This document shows, in pieces, positions 2,881 to 63,826 of a stretch of DNA of 64,000 nucleotides. The first letter of the stretch is position 1; every line of letters begins with the position of its first letter. The notes under the pieces are model-generated. The model was given only the letters and a program-made list of their open reading frames with translations. It made no database searches and had not been told where the DNA came from. Source of the DNA: Candidatus Uhrbacteria bacterium (lineage in GTDB: Bacteria > Patescibacteriota > Patescibacteriia > UBA9934). Where the stretch lies: the NCBI GenBank assembly GCA_943359325.1, contig CALRHD010000002.1, positions 4,629 through 68,628 on the forward strand. Reading direction: 5' to 3'. The translations under genes and the position numbers were made by a program.

Positions 2881-2987
2881 AAAAAAGATGTTAAACAGTA
2901 AATAAAAATCTCCCAATGCGCTCATCATAATAGATGAACGTAGGGAGTACGTATTCATTTTCCTGCGAAGCACGACGGACGTCAAGT

Positions 2988-3022
2988 GTGGATAAGTTTG
3001 TCCACGACTCAGTTGCGGACAT
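2988..3022 (+). repeat. REP-like palindromic element copy 2 (GTGGATAAGTTTG-GTCCACGACTCAGTTGCGGAC-AT)
   Basis: Read directly. It lies between the RAYT start and the radA stop, in the same orientation as copy 1. Confidence 0.85.
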
Positions 3023-4299
3023 TACTTCAATAACTGATCGATTGTCTTGATCGTTTTTGGCGTAATGGCGTTTTTGAGTCCGAGGCGTTCGGCCTCTTTG
3101 AGGCGGCGTTCGAGGTGGGGAACGGTGCGTACTTCGCCGCCGAGGCCGAGTTCGCCAAAAATAACCGTGTCGTCAGGGATTATTTTGTTTGACATTGCCG
3201 ACATGATCGCTGCGGCAACTGCAAGGTCAGCCGCCTTTTCTTTGACCTGCATGCCACCGACGACGTTGAGGTAGACATCTTGATCACCAACTTTGACGCC
3301 CGCACGTTTATTCACAATCGCGAGGAGCATTTGTAGCCGACTCGCGTCGTAGCCAGACGTGCGGCGCACAGGGTTTGGGAAAAGGCTGCGATCGATGAGT
3401 GCTTGAATTTCGACGAGAAACGGGCGTGAACCTTCCATGATGCAGGTGACAACAGACCCAGGGCAGGGGATGCGTTCGGCGAGAAATCGTGCTGAGGGAT
3501 TTTCTACTGTTACCATGCCATGTTCGGTCATTTCGAATACACCGACGTCGTCCGTTGCACCAAAACGATTTTTGCTACAGCGCAAAATGCGGTACGCCGT
3601 GTCGGCATCGCCTTCGAGTGTGAGAAGTGTGTCAACGAGGTGCTCGAGCGTTTTTGGCCCTGCGATTGACCCCTCTTTTGTGACTTGTCCGATGATGAGC
3701 ACGGGCACATTCGCAGTTTTTGCGTAGCTGATGAGTTCGCTCGTTGCCGCACGGACCGCTGTCGGCGTCCCCGGAAATGCATCGGCGTCCTCGACCATCA
3801 TTGTTTGTATAGAGTCAACAATGAGAATGCTCGGTGACATGGTTTTCGCTGCGGCAATAATACTGCCGATTTCGACGGCTCCCGAAAACACAATTGATTG
3901 CATACCAATACCGAGGCGTTCAAATCGCATACGCACTTGCCCCTCGCTTTCTTCGCCAGAGACGTAGTATGAAGGCGTCGACGACGACATTGCCACAGCA
4001 ATCTGCGCGACGAGCGTCGACTTTCCAATACCTGGTTCGCCTGCCAACAAAACAACAGCACCTGGAACAATGCCGCCACCGAGCACGCGGTCGAGTTCAG
4101 CAATATCTGTGGGGCGGTGAGTAATTTTGGTGAAGTTGGTGTTGTCGAGCGCGATCATCGCTGCGGGTGCAGCTTTTGCAGATGAAGTTTGGCGACCCGG
4201 CGTCGTACCACCTTCTGCAATAGTTCCCCAATTTCCGCATTCGGTGCAACGCCCCTGCCATTTGTTAAATTGACTGTCGCACTTGGTACAAGAAAACAT
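3022..4299 (-). CDS. radA: DNA repair protein RadA/Sms
   Basis: N-terminal C4 zinc finger (CTKC...CTEC) is followed by the Walker A motif GEPGIGKST and the KNRFG motif. The C-terminus is a Lon-protease-like domain. Confidence 0.9.
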   Translation of the reverse strand: MFSCTKCDSQFNKWQGRCTECGNWGTIAEGGTTPGRQTSSAKAAPAAMIALDNTNFTKITHRPTDIAELDRVLGGGIVPGAVVLLAGEPGIGKSTLVAQIAVAMSSSTPSYYVSGEESEGQVRMRFERLGIGMQSIVFSGAVEIGSIIAAAKTMSPSILIVDSIQTMMVEDADAFPGTPTAVRAATSELISYAKTANVPVLIIGQVTKEGSIAGPKTLEHLVDTLLTLEGDADTAYRILRCSKNRFGATDDVGVFEMTEHGMVTVENPSARFLAERIPCPGSVVTCIMEGSRPFLVEIQALIDRSLFPNPVRRTSGYDASRLQMLLAIVNKRAGVKVGDQDVYLNVVGGMQVKEKAADLAVAAAIMSAMSNKIIPDDTVIFGELGLGGEVRTVPHLERRLKEAERLGLKNAITPKTIKTIDQLLK

Positions 4300-14532: not shown

Positions 14533-14542
14533 TTATGAACAA

Positions 14543-14676
14543 TTTCTCCCACATAACATACTCCGTTCCTTGTGAAGCCCCGCAGCCGCAGTCCGTACAC
14601 AAGGCCTCGGCTTACGCCGGCCACGGACTGACGGGCGGCGCCTCACGACGTCACGAAGTATGTTATGTGGGAGAAA
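14543..14676. repeat. GC-rich structured intergenic repeat, copy 1 (about 134 bp, ERIC/MITE-like) with perfect 20-bp terminal inverted repeats TTTCTCCCACATAACATACT / AGTATGTTATGTGGGAGAAA
   Basis: Read directly. The core CCCCGCAGCCGCAGTCCGTACA(G)CAAGGCCTCGGCTTACGCCGGCCACGGACTGACGGGCGG recurs at 51934, 59989 and 61416. It lies between pheS and pheT. Confidence 0.85.
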
Positions 14677-14685
14677 TCAGTGATT

Positions 14686-20400: not shown

Positions 20401-21017
20401 ACGACGATGTTTTTGTGTCGACTGCAGGAGTTATTGGGAGCGTGAAACAGATTTTCACAAAAAAGAAAAACGATGCAATGGCGTTTGTGCGACTCGAAGA
20501 TAGCTCGGGAAGCATTGAGATGGTCGTGTTTCCGAAAGTGTATGCGCAGATTAAGGAGAAGCTGTTGCCGGATACGCTTGTGCTTGTGAAGGGTAAGGTT
20601 TCGGTGCGCGAAGGTCGTGAAGACGCCGAGGGGAATGTGACGAATGAACATTCGGTGTTGTGCGACGCTATCGTGCCATTTCGCGAGGAAGATGTGCCGC
20701 GCATTGGTGCAATGTTGCAACAGGATATGTGGCCGGAAGAAGGAGGTCCGGCGAAGCCGGATCCGGCTTCGCCAGAAAAGAGAAAAGTGGGAAGTATCGA
20801 AGACGGTATTATGATCACGGCACCAGAAATGCCGTCGCAAGAGATGATTGGGAAGTTGCGCGAAATATTCCAGGCAGCACCGGGGAGGGAGCGGGTGTAC
20901 CTCCTTGTACAGTCGGGCGGGAAATTGCAAACCATCGCAACCGAGTATTCCGTGAAACGCTCGCAAGACCTTCTTGTCCGCATTTCTGCAATTGTCGGTG
21001 CAGAGAATGTGCGGTAG
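17445..21017 (+). CDS. dnaE: DNA polymerase III alpha subunit
   Basis: The PHP domain starts YLHNHSHYSLLEA. The polymerase core motifs and an OB fold are present. At about 1190 aa it is the right size. The start is set downstream of the REP. Confidence 0.9.
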   Translation: MRAYRRRMDPKNFVYLHNHSHYSLLEALPKPKSLVKRAKELGMSTLALTDNGALYGAVEFFKACKDAEMKPILGMDTYVAPYRMTDRRPRVDERALRLVLLAENDEGYRNLLRITTAGFLDGFYYKPRVDKEFLREHARGLIALSGSVSNDIALALLSDDVDKAKMLVASYQDIFGKENFYLELIHHPDMQRQLEVNEAYKKLSAETGVPLVATRNVFYLDPDDREGYEAQLCIMRGRTLEEFRRTSTDDVDLSFGTPEEICTYFADVPDALENTAKIAERCTFTMELGKNFLPVFPLPPGKTDNEYFHELCIAGLKERYADPIPVDVMERFDFEYATIEKMGFASYFLIVQDYINWAKNNGVLVGPGRGSAAGSIVAYALRITDIEPLRYGLLFERFLNPDRASLPDIDTDFADRGRGKVLEYIAQKYGADHCAGIITFGTLMPRAAVRDAARVLGLTFQEADVIAKAVPPPVQGRHTPLKEAIVESPDLRRIVDGDPIARRVVDLAMKLEGNPRHASQHACGIVIGDKPLVERVPLQKGQHEDMAFITQYSLNSAEAAGLVKMDFLGLSNLTVIEDALEIVRAVHGVTIDIENVPLDDKKTFALLGRGDTTGVFQLESDGMKRYIRDLKPTMFEDIIAMVSLYRPGPMQFIESFISRKHGREAVAYEHPLMERAFKETYGIPVYQEQVMQVSKDVAGFTGGEADTLRKAMGKKIAELMAKMKTKFIDGAVKNGVRATVAEKIFQKLEDFAAYGFNKSHAACYAMIAYRTAYLKAYYPAEFMCALMNSDSGNLDRITIEVAECSRMGHVVLPPDVNESFPGFAVVPDTKNIRWGLQAIKNVGTEIAEIIVRERKQGGEFVDLPDFLGRIHANTFNKKTLEALIKTGALDRFDDRAKLFTNLDQLLLYNKHINASREQNQVTLFDLSPTMVTEKIVLRPSENISRSTILGWEKELLGLYVSMHPGVLFADAFLGRVKTCAEIATMDDDVFVSTAGVIGSVKQIFTKKKNDAMAFVRLEDSSGSIEMVVFPKVYAQIKEKLLPDTLVLVKGKVSVREGREDAEGNVTNEHSVLCDAIVPFREEDVPRIGAMLQQDMWPEEGGPAKPDPASPEKRKVGSIEDGIMITAPEMPSQEMIGKLREIFQAAPGRERVYLLVQSGGKLQTIATEYSVKRSQDLLVRISAIVGAENVR

Positions 21018-21055
21018 CGTCGCGGGCGCCTAGGCATTCGGGACGCGGTATTTTT

Positions 21056-21084
21056 TTGACAAAACGCCCATTTTTTGTTATAAA
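21056..21084 (+). promoter_or_regulatory. Near-consensus sigma70-type promoter: TTGACA, a 17-nt spacer, then TATAAA with an upstream TGT (extended -10)
   Basis: Read directly. It lies about 80 nt upstream of ORF 21164, which has the strong Shine-Dalgarno sequence AAAAAGGAGGACTAGCCGATG. Confidence 0.6.
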
Positions 21085-21163
21085 ATAAGGGTTGATCCTC
21101 TTGTTGGATTGACCGTTTCTCGAGCGTTTTGAGATGTTTTTCAAGAAAAAGGAGGACTAGCCG

Positions 21164-21946
21164 ATGTCTCAACCATTGTTCTCGTCCGTAACACTGGACG
21201 ATCCAAAGGGTATCAAGTGTTCTACCATGTTCCGTGAGGTCTATAACGGAATGGAGTTGAATGACGATCGCGCACAGCTCGTTAATGAGCGGGGAGGAGA
21301 GTTCAAGGCAGGAGTGCGCGAGCTTCTTGCACGGCTTTCCGCGGTCGGGAAGATGTTTAACATCACTCACCAGATTGAGCAGCTTATCGCGCTCAATTTC
21401 CAAACAGGGTGCAGCCCGAGCGGCATGAGTGCCGAGGATTATCGCAAGCTCTGGCCAACGTCTGTCGTGCAACCCGTGGAGTACGCGGGTCGTCTCGACC
21501 TACCACTCCTTGTCGATACGACGATCCCGCTCAATCGACTCGTAGTGCTGAACCACAATGTTGTGGAGCACATCAATCTTTTATCCTGTAGGGATATGGT
21601 CAATGCACCATGTCACGCAAGTGGTGCAATGTGTACCCGCTACATTGCGTGGGTGCAGACTCATCGCTGGCTCGGACGAAAGGTTGCCGATGTTCGTAAG
21701 GAGATGGCCGCAGACGAAGTGGGACTCGTGATTGTGGAAGGGCTGCATCTTCCGGGGCAATGCGAATCTCTGCTCCGAAAGCAGGGTGTTGACATCCCTG
21801 GCTCGCGCTGCGGCGAGGCCTACGCGCCGTGCGTCGACTGGTTCGACGATGTTCGGCCGCGCGTTTGCGCCAGCCTCGTCGAGTATGCCAATGCGTTCTA
21901 TGGTTCTGCATCCCGTGGGACTACTGTGGTGCCTGTGACCTGGTAG
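21164..21946 (+). CDS. Hypothetical cytoplasmic protein (260 aa, 12 Cys)
   Basis: It has a strong promoter, a strong Shine-Dalgarno sequence and an intrinsic terminator. I do not recognise any family motif. Confidence 0.6.
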   Translation: MSQPLFSSVTLDDPKGIKCSTMFREVYNGMELNDDRAQLVNERGGEFKAGVRELLARLSAVGKMFNITHQIEQLIALNFQTGCSPSGMSAEDYRKLWPTSVVQPVEYAGRLDLPLLVDTTIPLNRLVVLNHNVVEHINLLSCRDMVNAPCHASGAMCTRYIAWVQTHRWLGRKVADVRKEMAADEVGLVIVEGLHLPGQCESLLRKQGVDIPGSRCGEAYAPCVDWFDDVRPRVCASLVEYANAFYGSASRGTTVVPVTW

Positions 21947-21957
21947 CCTGAAACCTT

Positions 21958-21992
21958 GATGCCCGCAACTTTGTTGCGGGCATCTTTGTATT
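21958..21992 (+). terminator. Intrinsic terminator GATGCCCGCAAC-TTTG-TTGCGGGCATC followed by TTTGTATT
   Basis: Read directly: a perfect 11-12 bp stem followed by a T-run. Confidence 0.75.
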
Positions 21993-22175
21993 CTGAAAAC
22001 TTTTGCGTATCGCCGCCATGGTGTCAAAGAAAAATGCACAACTCTCTCCGCACAACATACTTTCGTTGTCATCCTCATAAAAATAGGGATCCATGTTGAT
22101 GCTGTCTGGATTCCCGCCTACGCGGGAATGACAGAAATTGGGAATATGTTGTGGGGGAAGAGGTATAGAAAAATG

Positions 22176-22184
22176 TGCTATAAT
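22176..22184 (+). promoter_or_regulatory. Extended -10 promoter TGCTATAAT whose last base is 9 nt from the ATG at 22193, which predicts a leaderless transcript
   Basis: Read directly. Confidence 0.5.
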
Positions 22185-22192
22185 GCCCTCGT

Positions 22193-23368
22193 ATGGTAAA
22201 AAGCGTGCCCAAAAAGGGTGGGGCAGGGAAGAAGCCGTTATCCCGAAGTTTGCGAATGTATCAACGCATTGCGGTTGCATTTGTTGTAGGAACGCTTGGG
22301 CTTTTGATTGTCGTTCTCTACCTATCCATTTCTCGCGCTACAATTCATATTGTTCCTAAAGCAAAAACCGTCGATGTTACTGTTCCTGTGCATGTTGTGC
22401 CGAATCCGACTGAAGAAGGCGATATGACGGGTGTTGTTGTTGAACAAACGTTTACGAAGGCACAGTCGTTTGCGTTGCCGAGCGAGGGTGGGACGCCTGT
22501 CGAACAAAAGGCGGGTGGTATGGTGACGCTCATTAACAAAACCAACGCACCGCAAACGCTCGTTGCGACAACGCGACTTTTGTCGGAGGAAGGTGTGCTT
22601 TTCCGTATTGATAATTACGTCACTATTCCTGCAAACGGTCAGCTCGACACTACGGTGCATGCCGACGTCACAGGACTTTCGGGCGAAGTGCCGCCTACGC
22701 AGTTCACTATTCCCGGATTGCCCACGTCGCAGCAAAAAGACATTTATGCAGTGAGTGTTGACGCGATGACGGGTGGGGTGAGTTACGTCCGTACATTGTC
22801 GGAACAAGACTTGAACGACGCGGTGACGTCGCTTACCGACAGTATGATTTTGGACAGCAAAGCGACGCTTGCTGCAGGCGTCGATCGTGCGATTTTTCCA
22901 GGCGAAGCATATGTGAGCGACGTTCTTGAGCGTAAAAGTGACACGCAACCCGGAAGCGAGGCGGGGAGTTTTACCGTATCGCTCACTGTGCATGTCGCAG
23001 CGGTGTATTACGACCCTGCGATTCTCACCACCTACGCACAACAAAAACTCGCCGCACAGTTGCCGAGCGAGTACGCTATGGTGACAATGAATACCGAAAG
23101 CATGCAGGTTTCCGTCGACTCTGCTGAAAAGTCGAAAGGTACGGCGACACTTTCGGTGTATCTTGACGGCGTTGGTGCGATTTCGGCAGGCGCAGACGCA
23201 TTTCGCAAAGAGCGTTTCCTTGGCCGTTCGGCACAAGAAGTGATGACGCTGCTCTCTGTTTCGGATGCGATTGCCAGCTCGAGTGTCACTTTCACACCGT
23301 TTTGGCTCAAACGAGTTCCTACGCTTCGTGACCACATCGTTGTTGACATAGAAGAGCCTGCTTCGTAA
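22193..23368 (+). CDS. Hypothetical protein with an N-terminal membrane anchor (391 aa)
   Basis: A basic N-terminus is followed by one transmembrane helix and a large beta-rich, Thr/Val-rich extracytoplasmic domain. Confidence 0.5.
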   Translation: MVKSVPKKGGAGKKPLSRSLRMYQRIAVAFVVGTLGLLIVVLYLSISRATIHIVPKAKTVDVTVPVHVVPNPTEEGDMTGVVVEQTFTKAQSFALPSEGGTPVEQKAGGMVTLINKTNAPQTLVATTRLLSEEGVLFRIDNYVTIPANGQLDTTVHADVTGLSGEVPPTQFTIPGLPTSQQKDIYAVSVDAMTGGVSYVRTLSEQDLNDAVTSLTDSMILDSKATLAAGVDRAIFPGEAYVSDVLERKSDTQPGSEAGSFTVSLTVHVAAVYYDPAILTTYAQQKLAAQLPSEYAMVTMNTESMQVSVDSAEKSKGTATLSVYLDGVGAISAGADAFRKERFLGRSAQEVMTLLSVSDAIASSSVTFTPFWLKRVPTLRDHIVVDIEEPAS

Positions 23369-25147: not shown

Positions 25148-27010
25148 TTACGCCTGTAGTTTTCCGCGTTTTAATTTCGTTTTTCTTTCAGTTTCGAGTC
25201 GTTTAAGTGATGCTTCTGCTGCCTGTTTCATCTTTCTTGTGTACCACCAACGTTCTACAATTCCCGCATTTTTCACGTCCTCTAAACTAAACTTCAATAA
25301 TTTTGGGAATTCTATTTTAAGTTCGTTGTATTGACGAACGAACTCTTTTGCTCCGCCGAAATTGTCGGCCAATCGGCGGAATGAATTCGTTTCCGTAAGC
25401 GCGTTTTTGCGCTCTAAATTTTTGTTGCTTTCGTACGCAGCAGCCCCAATGGGAGTTTTTTCGCCTTCATCAAACCATGTTGACTCAAGATCGACTTTAC
25501 GGTCGGGTGAATATTCCAGGTCGTCTCGACGTCGTTGTGGCTCTATTATTTCTGGTGCGCGATATTGGAGGTCGTCTACAATCTGTTCTTTTTTTAATCG
25601 TTTTGCACCTGCCTTCGAAAGCGCGGGCATTACGATTTTTGGAATTGGCAATACCGCTTTTACTTTTTCCAAAACTGGCTTCTTCCACTTCGGTGTTTCA
25701 GCTGCCGGCCGATCGTCTGCGGACAAAATCTTATTACCGACGCGATATGAGCCGTCGTCAGGGCGAATGACTTTTGCGCGGGACGCTTTCTTCGGGGCGG
25801 GTTCGTCAGCTTCGACTTCCACCGTGACGGGCGTTGGCGTAATAGTCTGTTCCGTAATTTCTTCGCTTTCTGGGAGTTTGAGCTCATCAAGAAGCCGCGC
25901 GACGCCATCTTTTTCATGTTGCGCAAGATCGGGACTCTTCGAAAGCTCGTGCAAATGATCACGCGCTTCGTCAGCGTCGATACGCCCTGTTTCCAGTGCA
26001 CGATGGAGTGAAGATTCGACTTTCGACGGCCGATCTTTTCCTGCGGCAGATTCTGCGAGTTTTGTGAACATTGCTCTTACTGTTTCTCCACCTTCAGAAA
26101 TAAGTAGACTTCGCGATGCCAGAAGTATTTGCTCACGTTCCTGCAATTCAAGAATTCCAAATGGTGCGGCAACGGTATCTTTGTCGACTTTGAGCTTTTC
26201 GATGACATCGTCGCATCGAGCGATGTGTACGTCGAGGTCCTCGAGCGTCATTTGACCGATGTCGAACCCCTTCGTTATCTCGAGCGCAACGAACGGCGAG
26301 AGTTCGCCACGTGCAACGCTGACCACTTCGTTTCCTTCTGTGAGCGCCATGGTTTCCGCCGCTACCATGCGATTGGCAATGTCTTCGTCCTCTTCGATCG
26401 CGTCGACATGAATTTCTCGGAGAAGTCTTTCGTCGTTCGCCTTTATGGCTCGATTGTACATGTCATCGATGCCTTCTGCATCCTGTTTGCGAATTTCGGC
26501 AACGGCATCGAAAAGCAATCGTGCCATGTCGGGCATGTCGTCTACCGAAGCGCTGATCGACGCAATGCGTATTATGTCTTTTTTGTAGCGATCGAGAAAT
26601 GCTTTCTCTGCTTTCGATTCTTCTTTGTCTCCCATGCCTTCGGTTGCTGCAAGCGCGTTATCCCAATGCTCGGCAATGCTTTCGCCGATGTCATTCGTTG
26701 CTGCGCGTTCCTCTATTGCCGCTTCGGAGCGCGTCAACCATGTAACGCTATCGCCGCGCCGCAAATAGAGCGTATCGCCCGTAGCATTGTCGACGACCCA
26801 TTCTTCGTACTGCCCGTCACGGCCGATGCGCTCAACGACACTTCCCTCCTTGTACGTTTCTGCACGACTGGTAACCCAATTTCCCTTTGGCGCGGCCTCG
26901 CGCATTGCTTCTGCCTCGGCGGCGACGTCGATACGCTCGTTGTGCAGCGTTGGTAGCTCGGCCTCTGGTATGTCGTGCTGCAACACTCTTTCTGTGCTTC
27001 GTTTTGCCAT
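25148..27010 (-). CDS. Hypothetical highly charged, acidic protein (620 aa)
   Basis: It has no transmembrane helix and no motif that I recognise. It is Glu/Asp/Lys-rich with predicted long helices. Confidence 0.45.
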   Translation of the reverse strand: MAKRSTERVLQHDIPEAELPTLHNERIDVAAEAEAMREAAPKGNWVTSRAETYKEGSVVERIGRDGQYEEWVVDNATGDTLYLRRGDSVTWLTRSEAAIEERAATNDIGESIAEHWDNALAATEGMGDKEESKAEKAFLDRYKKDIIRIASISASVDDMPDMARLLFDAVAEIRKQDAEGIDDMYNRAIKANDERLLREIHVDAIEEDEDIANRMVAAETMALTEGNEVVSVARGELSPFVALEITKGFDIGQMTLEDLDVHIARCDDVIEKLKVDKDTVAAPFGILELQEREQILLASRSLLISEGGETVRAMFTKLAESAAGKDRPSKVESSLHRALETGRIDADEARDHLHELSKSPDLAQHEKDGVARLLDELKLPESEEITEQTITPTPVTVEVEADEPAPKKASRAKVIRPDDGSYRVGNKILSADDRPAAETPKWKKPVLEKVKAVLPIPKIVMPALSKAGAKRLKKEQIVDDLQYRAPEIIEPQRRRDDLEYSPDRKVDLESTWFDEGEKTPIGAAAYESNKNLERKNALTETNSFRRLADNFGGAKEFVRQYNELKIEFPKLLKFSLEDVKNAGIVERWWYTRKMKQAAEASLKRLETERKTKLKRGKLQA

Positions 27011-27099: not shown

Positions 27100-27711
27100 A
27101 TGTACTTCAATACGGATGCGGAGCGTATTGCAGCGCTTGCACGGAGAGCGCTCGCCCAGCGGGGAATAATTCCTTTGTTGGGTAGAGATGACGATGCGGC
27201 GGAGTCGCTACGACCAGAAGCGCAGTATGTCGTCGACATGTTGAGTTGGCGAGACCCGTGGCATAGGCCACTTCTCGCAGGTTATGCCGCGGCGCTCATG
27301 ACGTACATTTTGAGCGTCAACGAGGAAACGCCGCACGACTTTGGCAGGCTGCAAGTTGTTGCGTGGACGCGGTTTGTTGCGGACTGGCTCGACAGGCACG
27401 AATGCAGCGACGCGCGGTGGGAAGACGTGAAATTCTTACGGCGCATTGCGTGGCAAGAAGAAAACGGGCAGCCGATTGCGAAGAATCTTCTGCTTGAGGC
27501 AGATAGGCGATTACGCGAAACGCAGCGTGCATTGACACCGATATGTCGTTTAGACCGCATTGCACTGTCGAACCACCTCGTGGCGACAGGTGCGGCACGG
27601 AACGGATTTGGATGCAGCATGAGCTACCATGCATTCACCCTAGTGTGGATCGTGATGCACCCGAAGGCAAAAGCGTATTTCCAGAACGTGGCGTTCGGAA
27701 TCGCAGGATAA
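27100..27711 (+). CDS. Hypothetical protein (203 aa)
   Basis: An AGGAGG Shine-Dalgarno sequence lies 6 nt upstream. It is transcribed divergently from the acidic protein gene. Confidence 0.45.
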   Translation: MYFNTDAERIAALARRALAQRGIIPLLGRDDDAAESLRPEAQYVVDMLSWRDPWHRPLLAGYAAALMTYILSVNEETPHDFGRLQVVAWTRFVADWLDRHECSDARWEDVKFLRRIAWQEENGQPIAKNLLLEADRRLRETQRALTPICRLDRIALSNHLVATGAARNGFGCSMSYHAFTLVWIVMHPKAKAYFQNVAFGIAG

Positions 27712-30133: not shown

Positions 30134-30874
30134 TTATGCCTTTTTGGCCGCAATGTACAGTGTGGTGCGGTACACAAGAATGAGCGGCATGACAACGATT
30201 TCGACGACGCGAAGGAGGAGATCCATGGGGACGGGGAGGGGTGCGGTGGGATCGAGGTGTGCGAGGTCGTAGCCGAGGAGGAGGTCGATGCACACGACAG
30301 CGAGGATATAGAGGAGAAGTATGCACACATCAAAGCCCCAGAGGCGGAGGAGCATAGCAAAAAATCGTCCACGGACAAGTTCGCGACTTTGTGCGAACGC
30401 CACAAACACGCGGCGTTTTTCGAGTGTCACAATGATCGGTGCAAACGCAAACCAAATTGCAAAAAGAATTCCGGGAACAATGAGCACGAATCCGAGAAGC
30501 GTGACGACGCCATAGAGGACGCATGACAAAAAAATTGTGAGGAGTACGTCGCGTGCGGTGCTTGGTGACTCGGGAAGCTTGCCGTCAACGAGAATGTGCT
30601 GTGTAGTCATCACGATGTGTGCGTACATCCAAATGCTGATGACAATCGTGATGATTTGCAAGCCGAGATCGAGCGTGTCAACAATGTCGCCGCTCCCAAA
30701 TGTGATGCGCAAAAGGATGCTGAGGACGAGCGGCATCAAAAGCCAGCCCGAATATCCGAGGAAGGTGAAAAAGTGTTTTTGAAAAATGCGGAGACTGGTG
30801 GCGGCGAGGTTACGAAGACTCGGCAGTCCGCCCGCTGGCGGAGGTGCGAGTGGCAACAAGACTTTGGAAGACAT
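30134..30874 (-). CDS. Polytopic membrane protein that is a paralogue of the upstream gene
   Basis: It has 6-7 transmembrane helices. The motif ELVRGRFFAMLLR parallels ALVKGRWWATMLR in the ORF at 30810..31706. Confidence 0.45.
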   Translation of the reverse strand: MSSKVLLPLAPPPAGGLPSLRNLAATSLRIFQKHFFTFLGYSGWLLMPLVLSILLRITFGSGDIVDTLDLGLQIITIVISIWMYAHIVMTTQHILVDGKLPESPSTARDVLLTIFLSCVLYGVVTLLGFVLIVPGILFAIWFAFAPIIVTLEKRRVFVAFAQSRELVRGRFFAMLLRLWGFDVCILLLYILAVVCIDLLLGYDLAHLDPTAPLPVPMDLLLRVVEIVVMPLILVYRTTLYIAAKKA

Positions 30875-31706
30875 AATAATCAGCAATAATGAACACCGGC
30901 GCCGTTACTGCAGCAACGAGTGTTGAGAGAATTTGGCTTATGGCGCCAACGAAAATTTCGAGCGCACTTTGGTCGATAAACTCTGTCGCGGGAACCAGTG
31001 CGGCAGAGAGCACGAACATGAGAAGCGAAATAAGCAGCTGTACGAAAAGAATAATGACGAGGAGCGTGAGTTTCGGCACGAGCACACGAAGCATGGTCGC
31101 CCACCAGCGGCCCTTGACCAGTGCGAATGCGCGGCGAATGCTCGCCACAACACCGCCTTTTTCGAGCATGAGTGAAAGCGGTGCCATGGGGAAGACGACA
31201 ATACAGTATGCGATAAGAATCGCCGATGTGACGCCGCCAAAAAAGAGGAAAAACATGCCAAGCGACGGGAGTACAACGCCGCTGTGTTCCTGTAGAGCAG
31301 AAATGAAAAGCATGCCAACTCCCGGTAGCACGAGTAGACATGCACCGAGTACAAGAATACCGAGCGCAAGACCTTGGAGGAATAGTTTGGCGACAATGTT
31401 TGGAATTTGCGCACGAATACTCGCAGGTTTTTTTCCGACTTCGAATGCGCTGGTTGACAGCACTACGCCGCCAAAAATGCCATACCCAATGCACAGCGCG
31501 AACAGTGCATTGAGGAACATGAGTATGACAACGGCGAGGGTTCCTGCGAATGAGTCAGCAAACAAAGGGAACAGCACCATGCTCACGATAATCAGCGGTA
31601 CGCCGAGCAACATCCACAGCGCAATCCGCATGTAGTCGCCGAAATGTTTTTCGTAGAGGTGAAATGTTTTATCGACGATTTGGCCGATGCTGATGAGTTG
31701 GATCAT
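30810..31706 (-). CDS. Polytopic membrane protein, the tandem paralogue of 30134..30874
   Basis: It has about 8 transmembrane helices and a shared motif. It overlaps the downstream paralogue. Confidence 0.45.
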   Translation of the reverse strand: MIQLISIGQIVDKTFHLYEKHFGDYMRIALWMLLGVPLIIVSMVLFPLFADSFAGTLAVVILMFLNALFALCIGYGIFGGVVLSTSAFEVGKKPASIRAQIPNIVAKLFLQGLALGILVLGACLLVLPGVGMLFISALQEHSGVVLPSLGMFFLFFGGVTSAILIAYCIVVFPMAPLSLMLEKGGVVASIRRAFALVKGRWWATMLRVLVPKLTLLVIILFVQLLISLLMFVLSAALVPATEFIDQSALEIFVGAISQILSTLVAAVTAPVFIIADYYVFQSLVATRTSASGRTAESS

Positions 31707-51933: not shown

Positions 51934-52068
51934 CTTTTCCTGCATGGCATGCTCCACTCCTTGTTCAGCCCCGCAGCCGCAGTCCGTACAGCAAGGCCTC
52001 GGCTTACGCCGGCCACGGACTGACGGGCGGTGCCGAACGACGTCGCAAAGCATGCCATGCAGAAAGAG
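51934..52068. repeat. GC-rich structured intergenic repeat, copy 2. Its terminal inverted repeats CTTTTCCTGCATGGCATGCT / AGCATGCCATGCAGAAAGAG differ from copy 1 by compensatory transitions.
   Basis: Read directly. It lies between the rpmE 3' end and the prfA 5' end. Confidence 0.85.
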
Positions 52069-59200: not shown

Positions 59201-59980
59201 ATGGCAACAAACGGGGGAGGTTTTTGGCCGCGATGGGACGAGCATAAATTATTTTTTGTATTGCTCGCGATATTGATGGTGTATGCAACGGTGCTCGTAT
59301 TTGTACACATTGAGAAGACGATTGTTGAAGTACGTGGCGTGGGGTTTGCCGATCAAACTGCGCCAACGATTTCGGTGACCGGTGAAGGTAAAGCAAGTGC
59401 GGTGCCCGACATTGCAAAAGTCGATATGATCGTGACGAATAAGGCGGCAAACACGTCGGCGGCACAAAGTGTAAACACCACGGTTATGAATGGGCTTATT
59501 GCGGCTATGCGGAATGCGGGGGTTGCGGAGAAGGATTTGAAAACGTCATCGTATAGTGTGTATCCCGTGTACGATTATGACGTGAGTCCTGCAACGATTA
59601 CCGGCTACGAAGCGTCGCAAACATTGAGTGTGACAATCCGCGATACTGAAAAATCGGGTGCAATTTTGGAAGCGGCAGGCAGCAATGGTGCGACGCAGAT
59701 TGGGAGTCTTCGTATGGAGGTTGACGATGAAACTGACGTGAAGAGCGAAGCGCGAAAGGCGGCGATTGCGGATGCACGCGCTGAGGCCGAGAGTATCGCA
59801 GCGGCGATGGATGCACGTCTTGGACGTGTCGTAAGTTATTACGAGTCAGAAGGTGGAAGTATGGGCTTTTATTACGAAGGGGCGATGTTGTCCGATAGCA
59901 TGAAAGTGGGCGCACCCGACATTGCAGAAGGGGAAAACGAAACGAACATTACGGTGACAATGACATACGCCATTCAGTAA
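59201..59980 (+). CDS. SIMPL/DUF541 (BP26/OMP28-like) periplasmic protein with an N-terminal membrane anchor
   Basis: The motifs ISVTGEGKASAVPDIA and SYSVYPVYDY are typical of SIMPL domains. Confidence 0.6.
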   Translation: MATNGGGFWPRWDEHKLFFVLLAILMVYATVLVFVHIEKTIVEVRGVGFADQTAPTISVTGEGKASAVPDIAKVDMIVTNKAANTSAAQSVNTTVMNGLIAAMRNAGVAEKDLKTSSYSVYPVYDYDVSPATITGYEASQTLSVTIRDTEKSGAILEAAGSNGATQIGSLRMEVDDETDVKSEARKAAIADARAEAESIAAAMDARLGRVVSYYESEGGSMGFYYEGAMLSDSMKVGAPDIAEGENETNITVTMTYAIQ

Positions 59981-59988
59981 ATCTGCAA

Positions 59989-60123
59989 CTCTCCCATCAC
60001 AACATACTCCGCTCCTTGTGAAGCCCCGCAGCCGTAGTCCGTACAGCAAGGCCTCGGCTTACGCCGGCCACGGACTGACGGGCGGTGCTACACTGCGTCG
60101 CAAAGTATGTTATGACGGGAGAG
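59989..60123. repeat. GC-rich structured intergenic repeat, copy 3, with terminal inverted repeats CTCTCCCATCACAACATACT / AGTATGTTATGACGGGAGAG
   Basis: Read directly. It lies between the SIMPL gene and eno. Confidence 0.85.
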
Positions 60124-60146
60124 ATCGGAGAAAATTAGAAGGAGTT

Positions 60147-61415
60147 ATGAAAGAACGTATTGACGTTATTCATGCACACGAAATTCTCGATTCGCGTGGA
60201 AACCCCACGTTGAACGTGACGGTGATGCTCAAAAACGGCCTGCGAGGGAGTGCATCGGTGCCGAGTGGAGCGTCGACGGGAGTTCATGAGGCGCTTGAAT
60301 TGCGAGACGGCGACATGTCGCGGTACCGTGGCAAAGGTGTGCGAAAGGCAGTAAAGAATGTAAATGTGACGATTGCAAAAGCGCTGCGTGGCATGGACGT
60401 TTTTGACGTTCGAGCGCTCGACGACGCAATGCGTATTATCGATGGTACGGAGAATAAGCATGTGCTTGGCGCGAACGCCATTCTCGGCGTGTCGCTTGCG
60501 TGCGCACATGCGGGTGCACGGAGGGCGAACACGCCGCTTTACGAACACATTCGCAATGTGTTCGGGTTACGCTACAACGGGTTTACGCTGCCAACGCCGT
60601 TCATGAACGTGTTTAACGGCGGCCTGCATGCCGACACGAATCTCGACATGCAGGAATTTATTATTATTCCCCACGGATTTAAAAAGTATTCTCGAAAAGT
60701 ACAGGCGGGGAGTGAGATTTTTCATGCGCTTGGTGACGTGCTGCACGCTGATGGGCTCGACACGGATGTGGGGAACGAAGGCGGCTACGCACCAAACGTC
60801 GGCAAAACAGAAGTTGCGCTCGAGTATTTGGCAAAGGCGACAAAAAAAGCAAAATATAAACTTGGTGGTGAAATTGGATTCGGCATCGACGTTGCAGCGA
60901 GTGAGTTCTATGACGCCAAAAAGGACAGGTATATTTTACGGACAGACAGACGGAAATTGAATGGGGGAGAGATGATTGATTTGTATGAGCAGTGGCTGAA
61001 GAAATATCCACTCATGTCGGTTGAAGACGGGCTCGACCAAGACGCATGGGTGGACTGGGCGATGCTCACCAAGCGTCTTGGCAAAAAAATGCTGCTCGTC
61101 GGGGATGATCTTTTTGTAACGAATGTAGAACGAGTGAAAATGGGACTTTCGCAAAAAGTTGCGAACGCCGTGCTCATAAAGCCAAACCAGATTGGTACGC
61201 TCTCGGAAACGATCGATACTATTCTGCTTGCGCAGAAGCACAAATATAAAATAGTTATCTCGCACCGTTCAGGAGAAACAAGCGACACAACGATTGCCGA
61301 CCTCGCCGTTGCGGTGAACGCGCAGTACATCAAGTCGGGCGCACCTTCGCGTTCGGAGCGGCTTTCGAAATATAATCGACTGCTTGAAATTGAGGAGGAG
61401 CTAGATGGAATTTGA
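60147..61415 (+). CDS. eno: Enolase
   Basis: The N-terminus is ILDSRGNPT. The C-terminal motif SHRSGETSDTTIADLAV is present. An AAGGAG Shine-Dalgarno sequence lies 5 nt upstream. The track ORF start at 60018 lies inside the repeat. Confidence 0.92.
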   Translation: MKERIDVIHAHEILDSRGNPTLNVTVMLKNGLRGSASVPSGASTGVHEALELRDGDMSRYRGKGVRKAVKNVNVTIAKALRGMDVFDVRALDDAMRIIDGTENKHVLGANAILGVSLACAHAGARRANTPLYEHIRNVFGLRYNGFTLPTPFMNVFNGGLHADTNLDMQEFIIIPHGFKKYSRKVQAGSEIFHALGDVLHADGLDTDVGNEGGYAPNVGKTEVALEYLAKATKKAKYKLGGEIGFGIDVAASEFYDAKKDRYILRTDRRKLNGGEMIDLYEQWLKKYPLMSVEDGLDQDAWVDWAMLTKRLGKKMLLVGDDLFVTNVERVKMGLSQKVANAVLIKPNQIGTLSETIDTILLAQKHKYKIVISHRSGETSDTTIADLAVAVNAQYIKSGAPSRSERLSKYNRLLEIEEELDGI

Positions 61416-61507
61416 CGCCCCCGCAGCCGCAGTCCGTACGGCAAGGCCTCGGCTTACGCCGGCCACGGACTGACGGGCGGTGCCGAACGACGTCGCAAAG
61501 CATGTAG
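61416..61507. repeat. GC-rich structured repeat, copy 4, which is partial: the 5' arm is missing and it abuts the eno stop codon
   Basis: Read directly. The core and 3' arm are present but there is no outer terminal inverted repeat. Confidence 0.8.
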
Positions 61508-61541
61508 TATAGGGATATACACCATGCTAGTCGCTCGATCG

Positions 61542-63205: not shown

Positions 63206-63826
63206 TTAAAATTTTCTTATTACTGCGCGGACGATGCCCTGAATGTTTATGTCGCCTTTAATAATGATAGGTTTCATGGTGCTGTTTGCAGGCTGGAGGC
63301 GAATGTGATTTTTTTCGCGGTAGAAACGTTTGAGTGTTGCATAAGCGTTGTCGAGGAGCGCGACAACGATGTCGCCGTTTTTGGGAGAATGTTTGCGTTC
63401 AACGACGACCATGTCGCCGTCAAAGATGCCATCTTCGATCATGGATCTGCCCTTGACTTTAAGTACGTACGAATTCATGGCGTCGACCACATAATTTGCA
63501 GGAACGGCGATGGCTTCGTTTTCTTCGATTGCTTCGATGGGCTCGCCTGCGGTGATGAGTCCTGCAAGCGGGAGCATGATGGCAAGCGGCGACAGCGGTT
63601 CAGTTTCGACGACCTCGATGCTGCGTGCGCTGCCGTTCTCGCCCGTATTGATAATGCCCTTTTCACACAGCGCCTTAATGTGTTGGTGAACCGTTGCGGG
63701 CGAACACAGCCCGAGTTCTTTTGCGATTTCGCGGTACGACGGAGTGTACCCATTTGCGCGAACAAATGTTGCCACGCAGTCGAGCACCTGACGTTGTTTT
63801 TTCGTAAGGGGAGGAAGCGGACTCAT
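63206..63826 (-). CDS. lexA: LexA repressor (S24 peptidase)
   Basis: The N-terminal winged-HTH motif is QRQVLDCVATFVRANGYTPSYREIA. The catalytic Ser is in GRSM and the catalytic Lys is in LKRF. Confidence 0.9.
   Translation of the reverse strand: MSPLPPLTKKQRQVLDCVATFVRANGYTPSYREIAKELGLCSPATVHQHIKALCEKGIINTGENGSARSIEVVETEPLSPLAIMLPLAGLITAGEPIEAIEENEAIAVPANYVVDAMNSYVLKVKGRSMIEDGIFDGDMVVVERKHSPKNGDIVVALLDNAYATLKRFYREKNHIRLQPANSTMKPIIIKGDINIQGIVRAVIRKF

Follow-up and report, generated by a model that had tools for sequence, protein, structure and literature searches.

The locus and its expression signals

The 64-kb stretch of DNA analysed here (the window) carries on the plus strand, at 21164..21946, a coding sequence for a 260-aa protein in which a helical hairpin (about residues 14-58, predicted with lower confidence) precedes a predicted C-type-lectin-fold domain (about residues 62-260). 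The open reading frame and its length are as given in the initial annotation. The gene lies behind a promoter-like sequence, a leader and a Shine-Dalgarno sequence; its 3′ part contains a segment resembling the variable region (VR) of a diversity-generating retroelement (DGR) with an IMH-like end, and a GC-rich hairpin and a short conserved motif lie past the stop codon.

The putative promoter is of the sigma-70 type and, as read from the sequence, occupies 21056..21084 on the plus strand, with a -35 box TTGACA (21056-21061, plus strand), a 17-nt spacer, an extended -10 TG (21076-77, plus strand) and a -10 box TATAAA (21079-21084, plus strand), all of which the initial annotation had placed correctly. 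A direct search for the pattern TTGACA-N17-TGnTAnAAn on both strands of the 64-kb window returned this single match, which a consensus promoter scan had missed because that scan accepts only T as the sixth base of the -10 box. The 5′ leader of ~74 nt (21090..21163, plus strand) contains hairpins at 21090-21114 and 21119-21133, and its 3′ part is the U/A-rich TGTTTTTCAAGAAAAAGGAGGA, including the Shine-Dalgarno GGAGG at 21151-55. The latter belongs to AAAAAGGAGGA (21146-21156, plus strand), with GGAGG 8 nt before the ATG at 21164, and the strong Shine-Dalgarno sequence claimed for this gene is thus present. The accompanying claim that most genes lack such a sequence also holds, as a Shine-Dalgarno-like match of at least 4 nt precedes 6 of the 26 genes called and a match of at least 6 nt precedes just two of the 26 called on the source contigs, this gene and the gene at 27100.

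Comparison with locus L018, which encodes the closest homologue (P0002, 63% protein identity), supports a functional role for the promoter, leader and Shine-Dalgarno sequence. At the aligned position, L018 reads TTGACA-17-TGcTATATT where the window has TGtTATAAA, and the tract TGTTT..CA..AAGGAGGA is likewise kept. Of the leader structure, 13 consensus pairs are kept in the window/L018 alignment, with one compensatory change from U-A to C-G and three one-sided changes, a two-sequence comparison that is suggestive of a conserved fold. The upstream neighbours differ, a Mur (murein) ligase gene at L018 versus dnaE in the window, and the promoter, leader and Shine-Dalgarno sequence therefore appear to travel with the target gene. 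As the signals are conserved in the closest homologous locus, it is a reasonable inference that the gene forms an independent, well-translated transcription unit, for which the strong promoter, structured leader and rare strong Shine-Dalgarno sequence would provide independent and efficient expression. It is improbable that the promoter, Shine-Dalgarno and terminator sequences are chance matches and that expression is ordinary or low, for instance by read-through from dnaE. Consensus matches by themselves are no evidence, the promoter scan found 8 sites with 11.5 expected from shuffles and hence no excess, and the leader folds in RNAfold at -24 kcal/mol with a z of only -1.67; chance would nevertheless have to account for the retention in L018 of the -35 box, 17-nt spacing, TG, -10 box, leader hairpins and AAGGAGGA despite different flanking genes and proteins that are merely 63% identical, as well as for the uniqueness of the promoter pattern in the window.

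A different arrangement is seen at many other genes of the window, where a TATAAT-like box ends ~7-10 nt before the start codon and a Shine-Dalgarno sequence is absent. Examples are the genes at 25148-27010 (minus strand) and 30810-31706 (minus strand) and the region 22160-22195, where the next gene, starting at 22193, has TGcTATAAT ending 9 nt ahead of its ATG and looks leaderless. This arrangement suggests that leaderless mRNAs are widespread in the source genome.

Protein family and predicted fold

The initial annotation had described an orphan without a recognisable domain. The latter description stands as far as searches of Pfam, NCBIfam, PHROGs and PADLOC (E ≤ 10) and of PDB sequences are concerned, which gave no match to the 260-aa protein, the Pfam FGE-sulfatase and DUF1566 models included; it does not extend to the predicted structure, in which a fold is recognisable. 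Nor is the protein an orphan, since a search of 5.8 billion proteins returned six homologues with 42-63% identity, and the profile built from these six matched at least 388 cluster representatives at E ≤ 1e-3, with 153 at E ≤ 1e-10. Judged by these alignments, the protein is a member of a sizeable CPR family for which Pfam has no model. The conserved core of the family in the alignments consists of YRxLWPxxVxQPxEYAGRFDxxLLVD, DEVGLxxxEGLHLPxQ and VDLPGSR, and is followed by a hypervariable block and then by an invariant YGSASRG near the C-terminus. To our knowledge, the VR motif of this family, ending in YGSASRG, differs from those of the other CLec VR classes.

Structure prediction with AlphaFold from a 30-sequence alignment gave a pLDDT of 90.7, exceeding 94 over residues 62-260, while a prediction from 7 sequences was unusable (pLDDT 47). 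In the model, the scaffold of residues ~62-260 is a C-type-lectin fold, the canonical DGR scaffold; a Foldseek search with the predicted model returned nothing significant. A DGR rewrites one short gene segment through error-prone reverse transcription. The hypervariable segment of the window protein is predicted to lie where a VR is expected, namely in the C-terminal end of a scaffold with a C-type-lectin (or Ig) fold, and the C-type-lectin fold is the scaffold that DGRs typically diversify (PMC6328139, PMC5006420). The DGR C-type-lectin variable proteins BPP-1 Mtd, Treponema denticola TvpA, Thermus TaqVP and nanoarchaeal AvpA have no detectable sequence similarity to the window protein, which differs from them further in being small and single-domain, in lacking a signal peptide and in having no cassette in cis. 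It is apparently cytoplasmic or non-classically exported, with no signal peptide and no transmembrane or hydrophobic segment found.

Among distant relatives recovered with the family profile, 4 of 71 matched DUF5701 (PF18959; best E 2.7e-14). The window protein and its close homologues have no match to this model even at E ≤ 10, and a second sample of distant members did not confirm the link, which was discarded; we know of no function for DUF5701. Another distant member, P0083 (1007 aa), carries the lectin-fold/VR domain C-terminal to a Ser/Thr protein kinase (Pfam Pkinase, E 1.4e-42), an arrangement that we take to resemble the kinase-linked DGR targets of cyanobacteria.

Adenine-biased variation in the family and in the window

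In several loci of the family, the gene is accompanied by a template repeat (TR), an Avd gene and a reverse transcriptase (RT) gene. At L018, the TR, bAvd (Pfam PF22296) and RT follow directly 3′ of the gene; the RT is represented by its N-terminal part, as the contig ends inside the gene, and RT homologues carry Pfam PF00078. The L018 VR (2428-2551) differs from its TR (2886-3009) at 18 positions, 17 of which are TR adenines. At L007 (P0003, 47% identity), 122 nt of the gene's 3′ end recur behind it as a repeat, and beyond this come bAvd, encoded on the opposite strand, and an RT gene encoding GIPIGNLTSQLFANVYL and YTDD, where the DGR RT motifs are IGNLTSQLFANVY and YxDD. Here 19 of the 20 mismatches between VR and TR fall on TR adenines, and the translated repeat (..NAPYVNWFDNDRPKLNANDVQNRNPNYGSASRG) has Asn (AAC) at the variable positions of the gene, so that, as read from its sequence, this pair is a textbook DGR TR/VR signature. 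A third cassette with TR, Avd and RT, at L029, is less clean, with 16 of 24 mismatches at adenines. The second paralogue in the L007 genome, L012, was considered as a clean target of the L007 TR and rejected, as 11 of its 31 mismatches lie at non-adenine sites. Patescibacteria MAGs and contigs from Hainich groundwater are the sources of the family loci. The RT has 896 homologues at E ≤ 1e-20, with Uhrbacteria, Magasanikbacteria and Patescibacteria as source names among the matches listed, in agreement with the DGR clade that Roux et al. described as restricted to Patescibacteria (PMC8144416).

The putative VR of the window gene (21797..21920, plus strand) encodes residues 212-253 (GSRCGEAYAPCVDWFDDVRPRVCASLVEYANAFYGSASRG), which form the hypervariable block of the family alignments, and aligns without gaps to the L018 TR. 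In this alignment, 18 of 31 adenine sites differ compared with 13 of 93 other sites (Fisher p = 3.8e-6), and with the more distant L007 TR the counts are 18 of 29 and 26 of 93, respectively; as both templates are heterologous, ordinary hypervariability of surface codons could give part of this signal. The segment is also depleted of adenine, which makes up 10.4% of 21797-21921 and 22.7% of 21164-21796. Window codons aligned to the AAC codons of the L018 template are TAC, GAC, GAT, CGC, TGC, AGC, TAT and TTC.

The same pattern bears on the cysteines of the protein, of which there are nine rather than the 12 initially counted. C142 is the sole invariant cysteine in the alignment of close homologues. 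Three of the nine (216, 223 and 235) lie within the hypervariable segment, and C216, C223 and C235 are encoded by TGC codons opposite template TAC, TAT and AAC. Judging from these codons, adenine mutagenesis (TAC/TAT/AAC to TGC) accounts for part of the cysteine richness of the protein.

An adjacent cassette is present in the three family loci L007, L018 and L029, which have enough flanking sequence, and absent from 7 of the 10 informative loci (the window, L005/L011, L009, L012, L014/L026, L015 and L025). The window gene is very probably the target (variable-protein) gene of a DGR of the Patescibacteria/CPR clade, here without its cassette. Reverse transcription of the TR RNA would introduce random errors opposite adenines, and the resulting cDNA would replace the VR at 21797-21920; such mutagenic retrohoming would have written the C-terminal 42 ligand-contacting residues of a lectin-fold binder. 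A protein initially listed as of unknown function can thus be placed in a putative DGR-target family with a predicted C-type-lectin fold, on the basis of the homologue cassettes and the adenine-site pattern of the window copy.

A protein unrelated to DGRs, ordinary and highly expressed, whose C-terminal loop evolves fast and whose co-occurrence with cassettes is coincidental, would agree with the lack of a TR or RT near the window copy, with the 7 of 10 informative loci that have no adjacent cassette and with a family that no profile library names. Such a coincidence is very hard to reconcile with a TR matching the family VR in three loci, two of them with almost purely adenine-specific differences, with the same site bias (p ≈ 4e-6) and adenine depletion in the window VR and with a modelled fold that is the canonical DGR scaffold, and we consider it highly improbable. 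With its assignment as a DGR target, a hypothetical protein that had no annotation becomes recognisable as part of a targeted-hypermutation system in an uncultured CPR bacterium, and the family, with its at least 388 cluster representatives, would mark DGR targets even where no reverse transcriptase is adjacent. DGR-diversified binders are thought to mediate host attachment or defence. Targets without an adjacent RT are, by their own statement, missed in metagenome surveys (PMC8144416).

The 3′ boundary, the missing cassette and possible targeting in trans

The 3′ boundary of the VR would be set by a GC-rich, IMH-like sequence together with a GC-rich hairpin downstream. The segment at 21902..21946 (plus strand) comprises the VR 3′ end, GGTTCTGCATCCCGTGGGA, and the last 9 codons of the gene, and the TR/VR homology of the homologues ends there. 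In L018 and L007, TR/VR identity ends directly past CG(T/C)GGG; the base after GGG is A in 10 of 10 VR copies compared (including those of the window, L007 and L018) and, in the templates, T in the L007 TR and A in the L018 TR. By analogy to BPP-1, GGTTCTGCATCCCGTGGGA is termed IMH-like (PMC5758913).

The terminator scan places a GC-rich hairpin with a T-rich tail at 21958..21994 (plus strand), in which GATGCCCGCAAC-TTT-GTTGCGGGCATC (21958-21984) forms 12 pairs, 8 of them G-C, and is followed by TTTGTATTCT. The initial annotation had called this structure a perfect terminator with a 12-bp stem. The 12-bp hairpin and the T-rich tail are indeed there, while its role as a terminator is shared with a candidate role as a DGR targeting repeat, the structure being a module common to the family. 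A stem of 10-13 bp starting 12-16 nt past the stop codon is found in 9 of 9 family loci with sequence at this position (a count that leaves out L013, where the contig ends too early), and these hairpins lie 36-40 nt past the VR end (37 nt in the window). The L018 hairpin, GATGCCCGCCAC/GTGGCGGGCATC, shows a compensatory change from A-T to C-G relative to the window, and its tail, TTCGCATCC, makes a poor U-tract. Efficient retrohoming in BPP-1 depends on a GC-rich inverted repeat located immediately 3′ of the VR, for which the stem structure rather than the sequence is important (PMC3240598). The phage DGR hairpins have a GRNA loop consensus and lie 4-34 bp from the VR (PMC3240598), whereas the loops of the family hairpins are TTT, CTCC, GTGA, GCAA and others, and their positions are just outside that range. 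A dual role of the hairpin at 21958-84, as terminator and possibly also as DGR targeting element, is plausible from these comparisons; given the T-runs that trail most of them, the family hairpins may be terminators only.

Past the hairpin, the plus-strand motif CTGAAAACTTTT (21993..22004) marks the end of homology to the cassette-bearing loci in the window, L018 and L007 alignment. The alignment of the window gene's 3′ flank with L018 and L007 spans stop codon, hairpin and CTGAAAACTTTT and breaks off at ~22004, past which L018 and L007 go on with TGAGAGTAGGGTC... into TR-Avd-RT and the window sequence diverges. Searches of the 64-kb window by tblastn with the L007 RT and Avd gave nothing better than E = 0.2, blastn with the VR found no second VR copy or TR in the window, and the genes called over the following 10 kb are all housekeeping genes, with no RVT or bAvd Pfam match. 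As the homology with L018 ends exactly at the start of the L018 cassette and no TR, Avd or RT was found in the 64 kb plus 10 kb, the gene would be a cassette-less DGR target. Of the 9 family loci whose sequence extends this far, 7 have a CTGA(A/T) motif 8-15 nt past the hairpin, namely the window (21993-21999), L018, L007, L009, L010, L011 and L012, which include cassette-less copies.

In the place of a cassette, the window has a sequence (22032..22160, no strand assigned) that is a divergent member of an intergenic inverted-repeat family, recognised from the repeat families D6, D1 and I12 and a five-copy alignment, in which it resembles the other four copies at the termini only; a role of this element in cassette loss is speculative. 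The other copies lie at 14533-14678, 51948-52068, 59979-60126 and 61398-61518. The element is intergenic, GC-rich and ~120-145 nt long, bounded by terminal inverted repeats CTCCCACATAACATAC...GTATGTTATGTGGGAG around a conserved core CCCCGCAGCCGCAGTCCGTACAGCAAGGCCTCGGCTTACGCCGGCCACGGACTGACGGGCGG. It has no Rfam match and may be either MITE-like or a structured RNA. A search of the whole window with Rfam gave nothing at gathering thresholds and, over 20900-22300 at permissive thresholds, two sub-threshold chance matches only; no tRNA genes were found in the window.

Remote DGR targets have been documented for other lineages, as has a Patescibacteria-restricted clade (PMC8144416, PMC5758913), and we give about even chances to the window copy still being overwritten in trans by a DGR that lies at another genomic location. 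This we regard as somewhat likelier than a frozen VR, in which TR-bAvd-RT would have been lost with no DGR elsewhere, leaving an ordinary lectin-fold gene of one fixed specificity and a hairpin that is a terminator only; a frozen VR is a serious possibility to which we give the lesser weight. It would explain why homology to L018 and L007 breaks at the cassette junction at ~22004, with an unrelated inverted-repeat element instead, and why RT, TR and Avd are missing from 74 kb, which is however a mere fraction of the genome. The VR is identical in the four assemblies containing the locus, which are probably not independent, and therefore shows no sign of ongoing variation. The third base of the GAT and TAT codons opposite template AAC is T, a change that mutagenesis of the adenines in AAC cannot bring about, and the T-rich hairpin tail is typical of intrinsic terminators. 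Against a frozen VR, the ORF, the IMH-like end, the hairpin (with its compensatory change) and ~60 nt of non-coding 3′ flank have diverged less from L018 than has the coding body, identity to L018 being ~85% in the 3′ flank and 69% in the gene, and the cassette-less paralogues of a sister MAG show concerted VR evolution.

Single MAGs of the family carry 2-3 paralogues on different contigs, and the sister MAG provides the clearest case, with the VRs of L009 (7565-7686) and L013 (8461-8582) located on CAZQSS01 contigs 16 and 19. Upstream of the VR, 82 of 300 nt (27%) differ between these two loci, compared with 15 of 122 within it, and 14 of the 15 VR differences fall on template-adenine positions. 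No RT lies within 7-8 kb on either side of L009. The pattern in these sequences is that expected if one TR overwrites several distant VRs and is evidence for such overwriting. Like remote DGR targets elsewhere, for example the seven of Treponema denticola, the window gene has its VR, IMH-like end and hairpin far from any RT; VR homogenisation between distant paralogues is seen in the sister MAG, and for the window copy we infer remote targeting. The Patescibacteria DGRs of clade 2 (Roux et al. 2021, PMC8144416; Wu et al. 2018, PMC5758913) are likewise cellular rather than phage-borne, but the family described here differs from them in having 2-3 paralogous targets per MAG on different contigs, with most copies cassette-less. 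CPR DGRs are reported to tend to a single target (PMC5758913), and the concerted VR evolution of distant paralogues suggests that targeting in trans is commoner in CPR than reported.

The RT genes have a peculiarity of their own. In 3 of 3 full cassettes inspected, the DGR RT gene is split into two overlapping ORFs, at ~5191-5405 in L007, ~6500-6645 in L020 and ~5479-5603 in L022. In each, the reading frame is interrupted at a G11, G9 or (GA)n tract situated between motif A (FFDSVDH) and motif B (GIPIGNLTSQ), and the RT homologues listed (the best 120 of 896) are mostly called at ~180-250 aa, consistent with the same truncation. These observations suggest that RT expression is phase-variable or slippage-dependent in this CPR clade, and a literature search found no paper describing a split RT with a simple-sequence tract. 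A tentative and rather unlikely extension is that a single DGR rewrites in trans a multi-copy lectin-fold repertoire, its RT being switched by the simple-sequence tract (G9-G11 or (GA)n). If true, the multi-copy repertoire and the switched RT would together make up a phase-variable hypermutation system, contrary to the single-target CPR DGRs reported.

Elsewhere in the window, seven copies of (T)GTGGATAA-nnn-TGTCCACGACTCAGTTGCGGACA, each ~42 nt long, are found at 2220, 2987, 4320, 17384, 33622, 42852 and 63887, in which a DnaA-box-like nonamer is followed by a palindrome. Genes with a copy immediately in front of them are lexA (63206-63826, minus strand), dnaE, a RadA-like gene (3022-4299), an IS200-like Y1 transposase gene, an ABC-2 permease gene and a gene of unknown function, and GTGGATAA-nnn-TGTCCACGACTCAGTTGCGGACA is a candidate LexA operator (SOS box).
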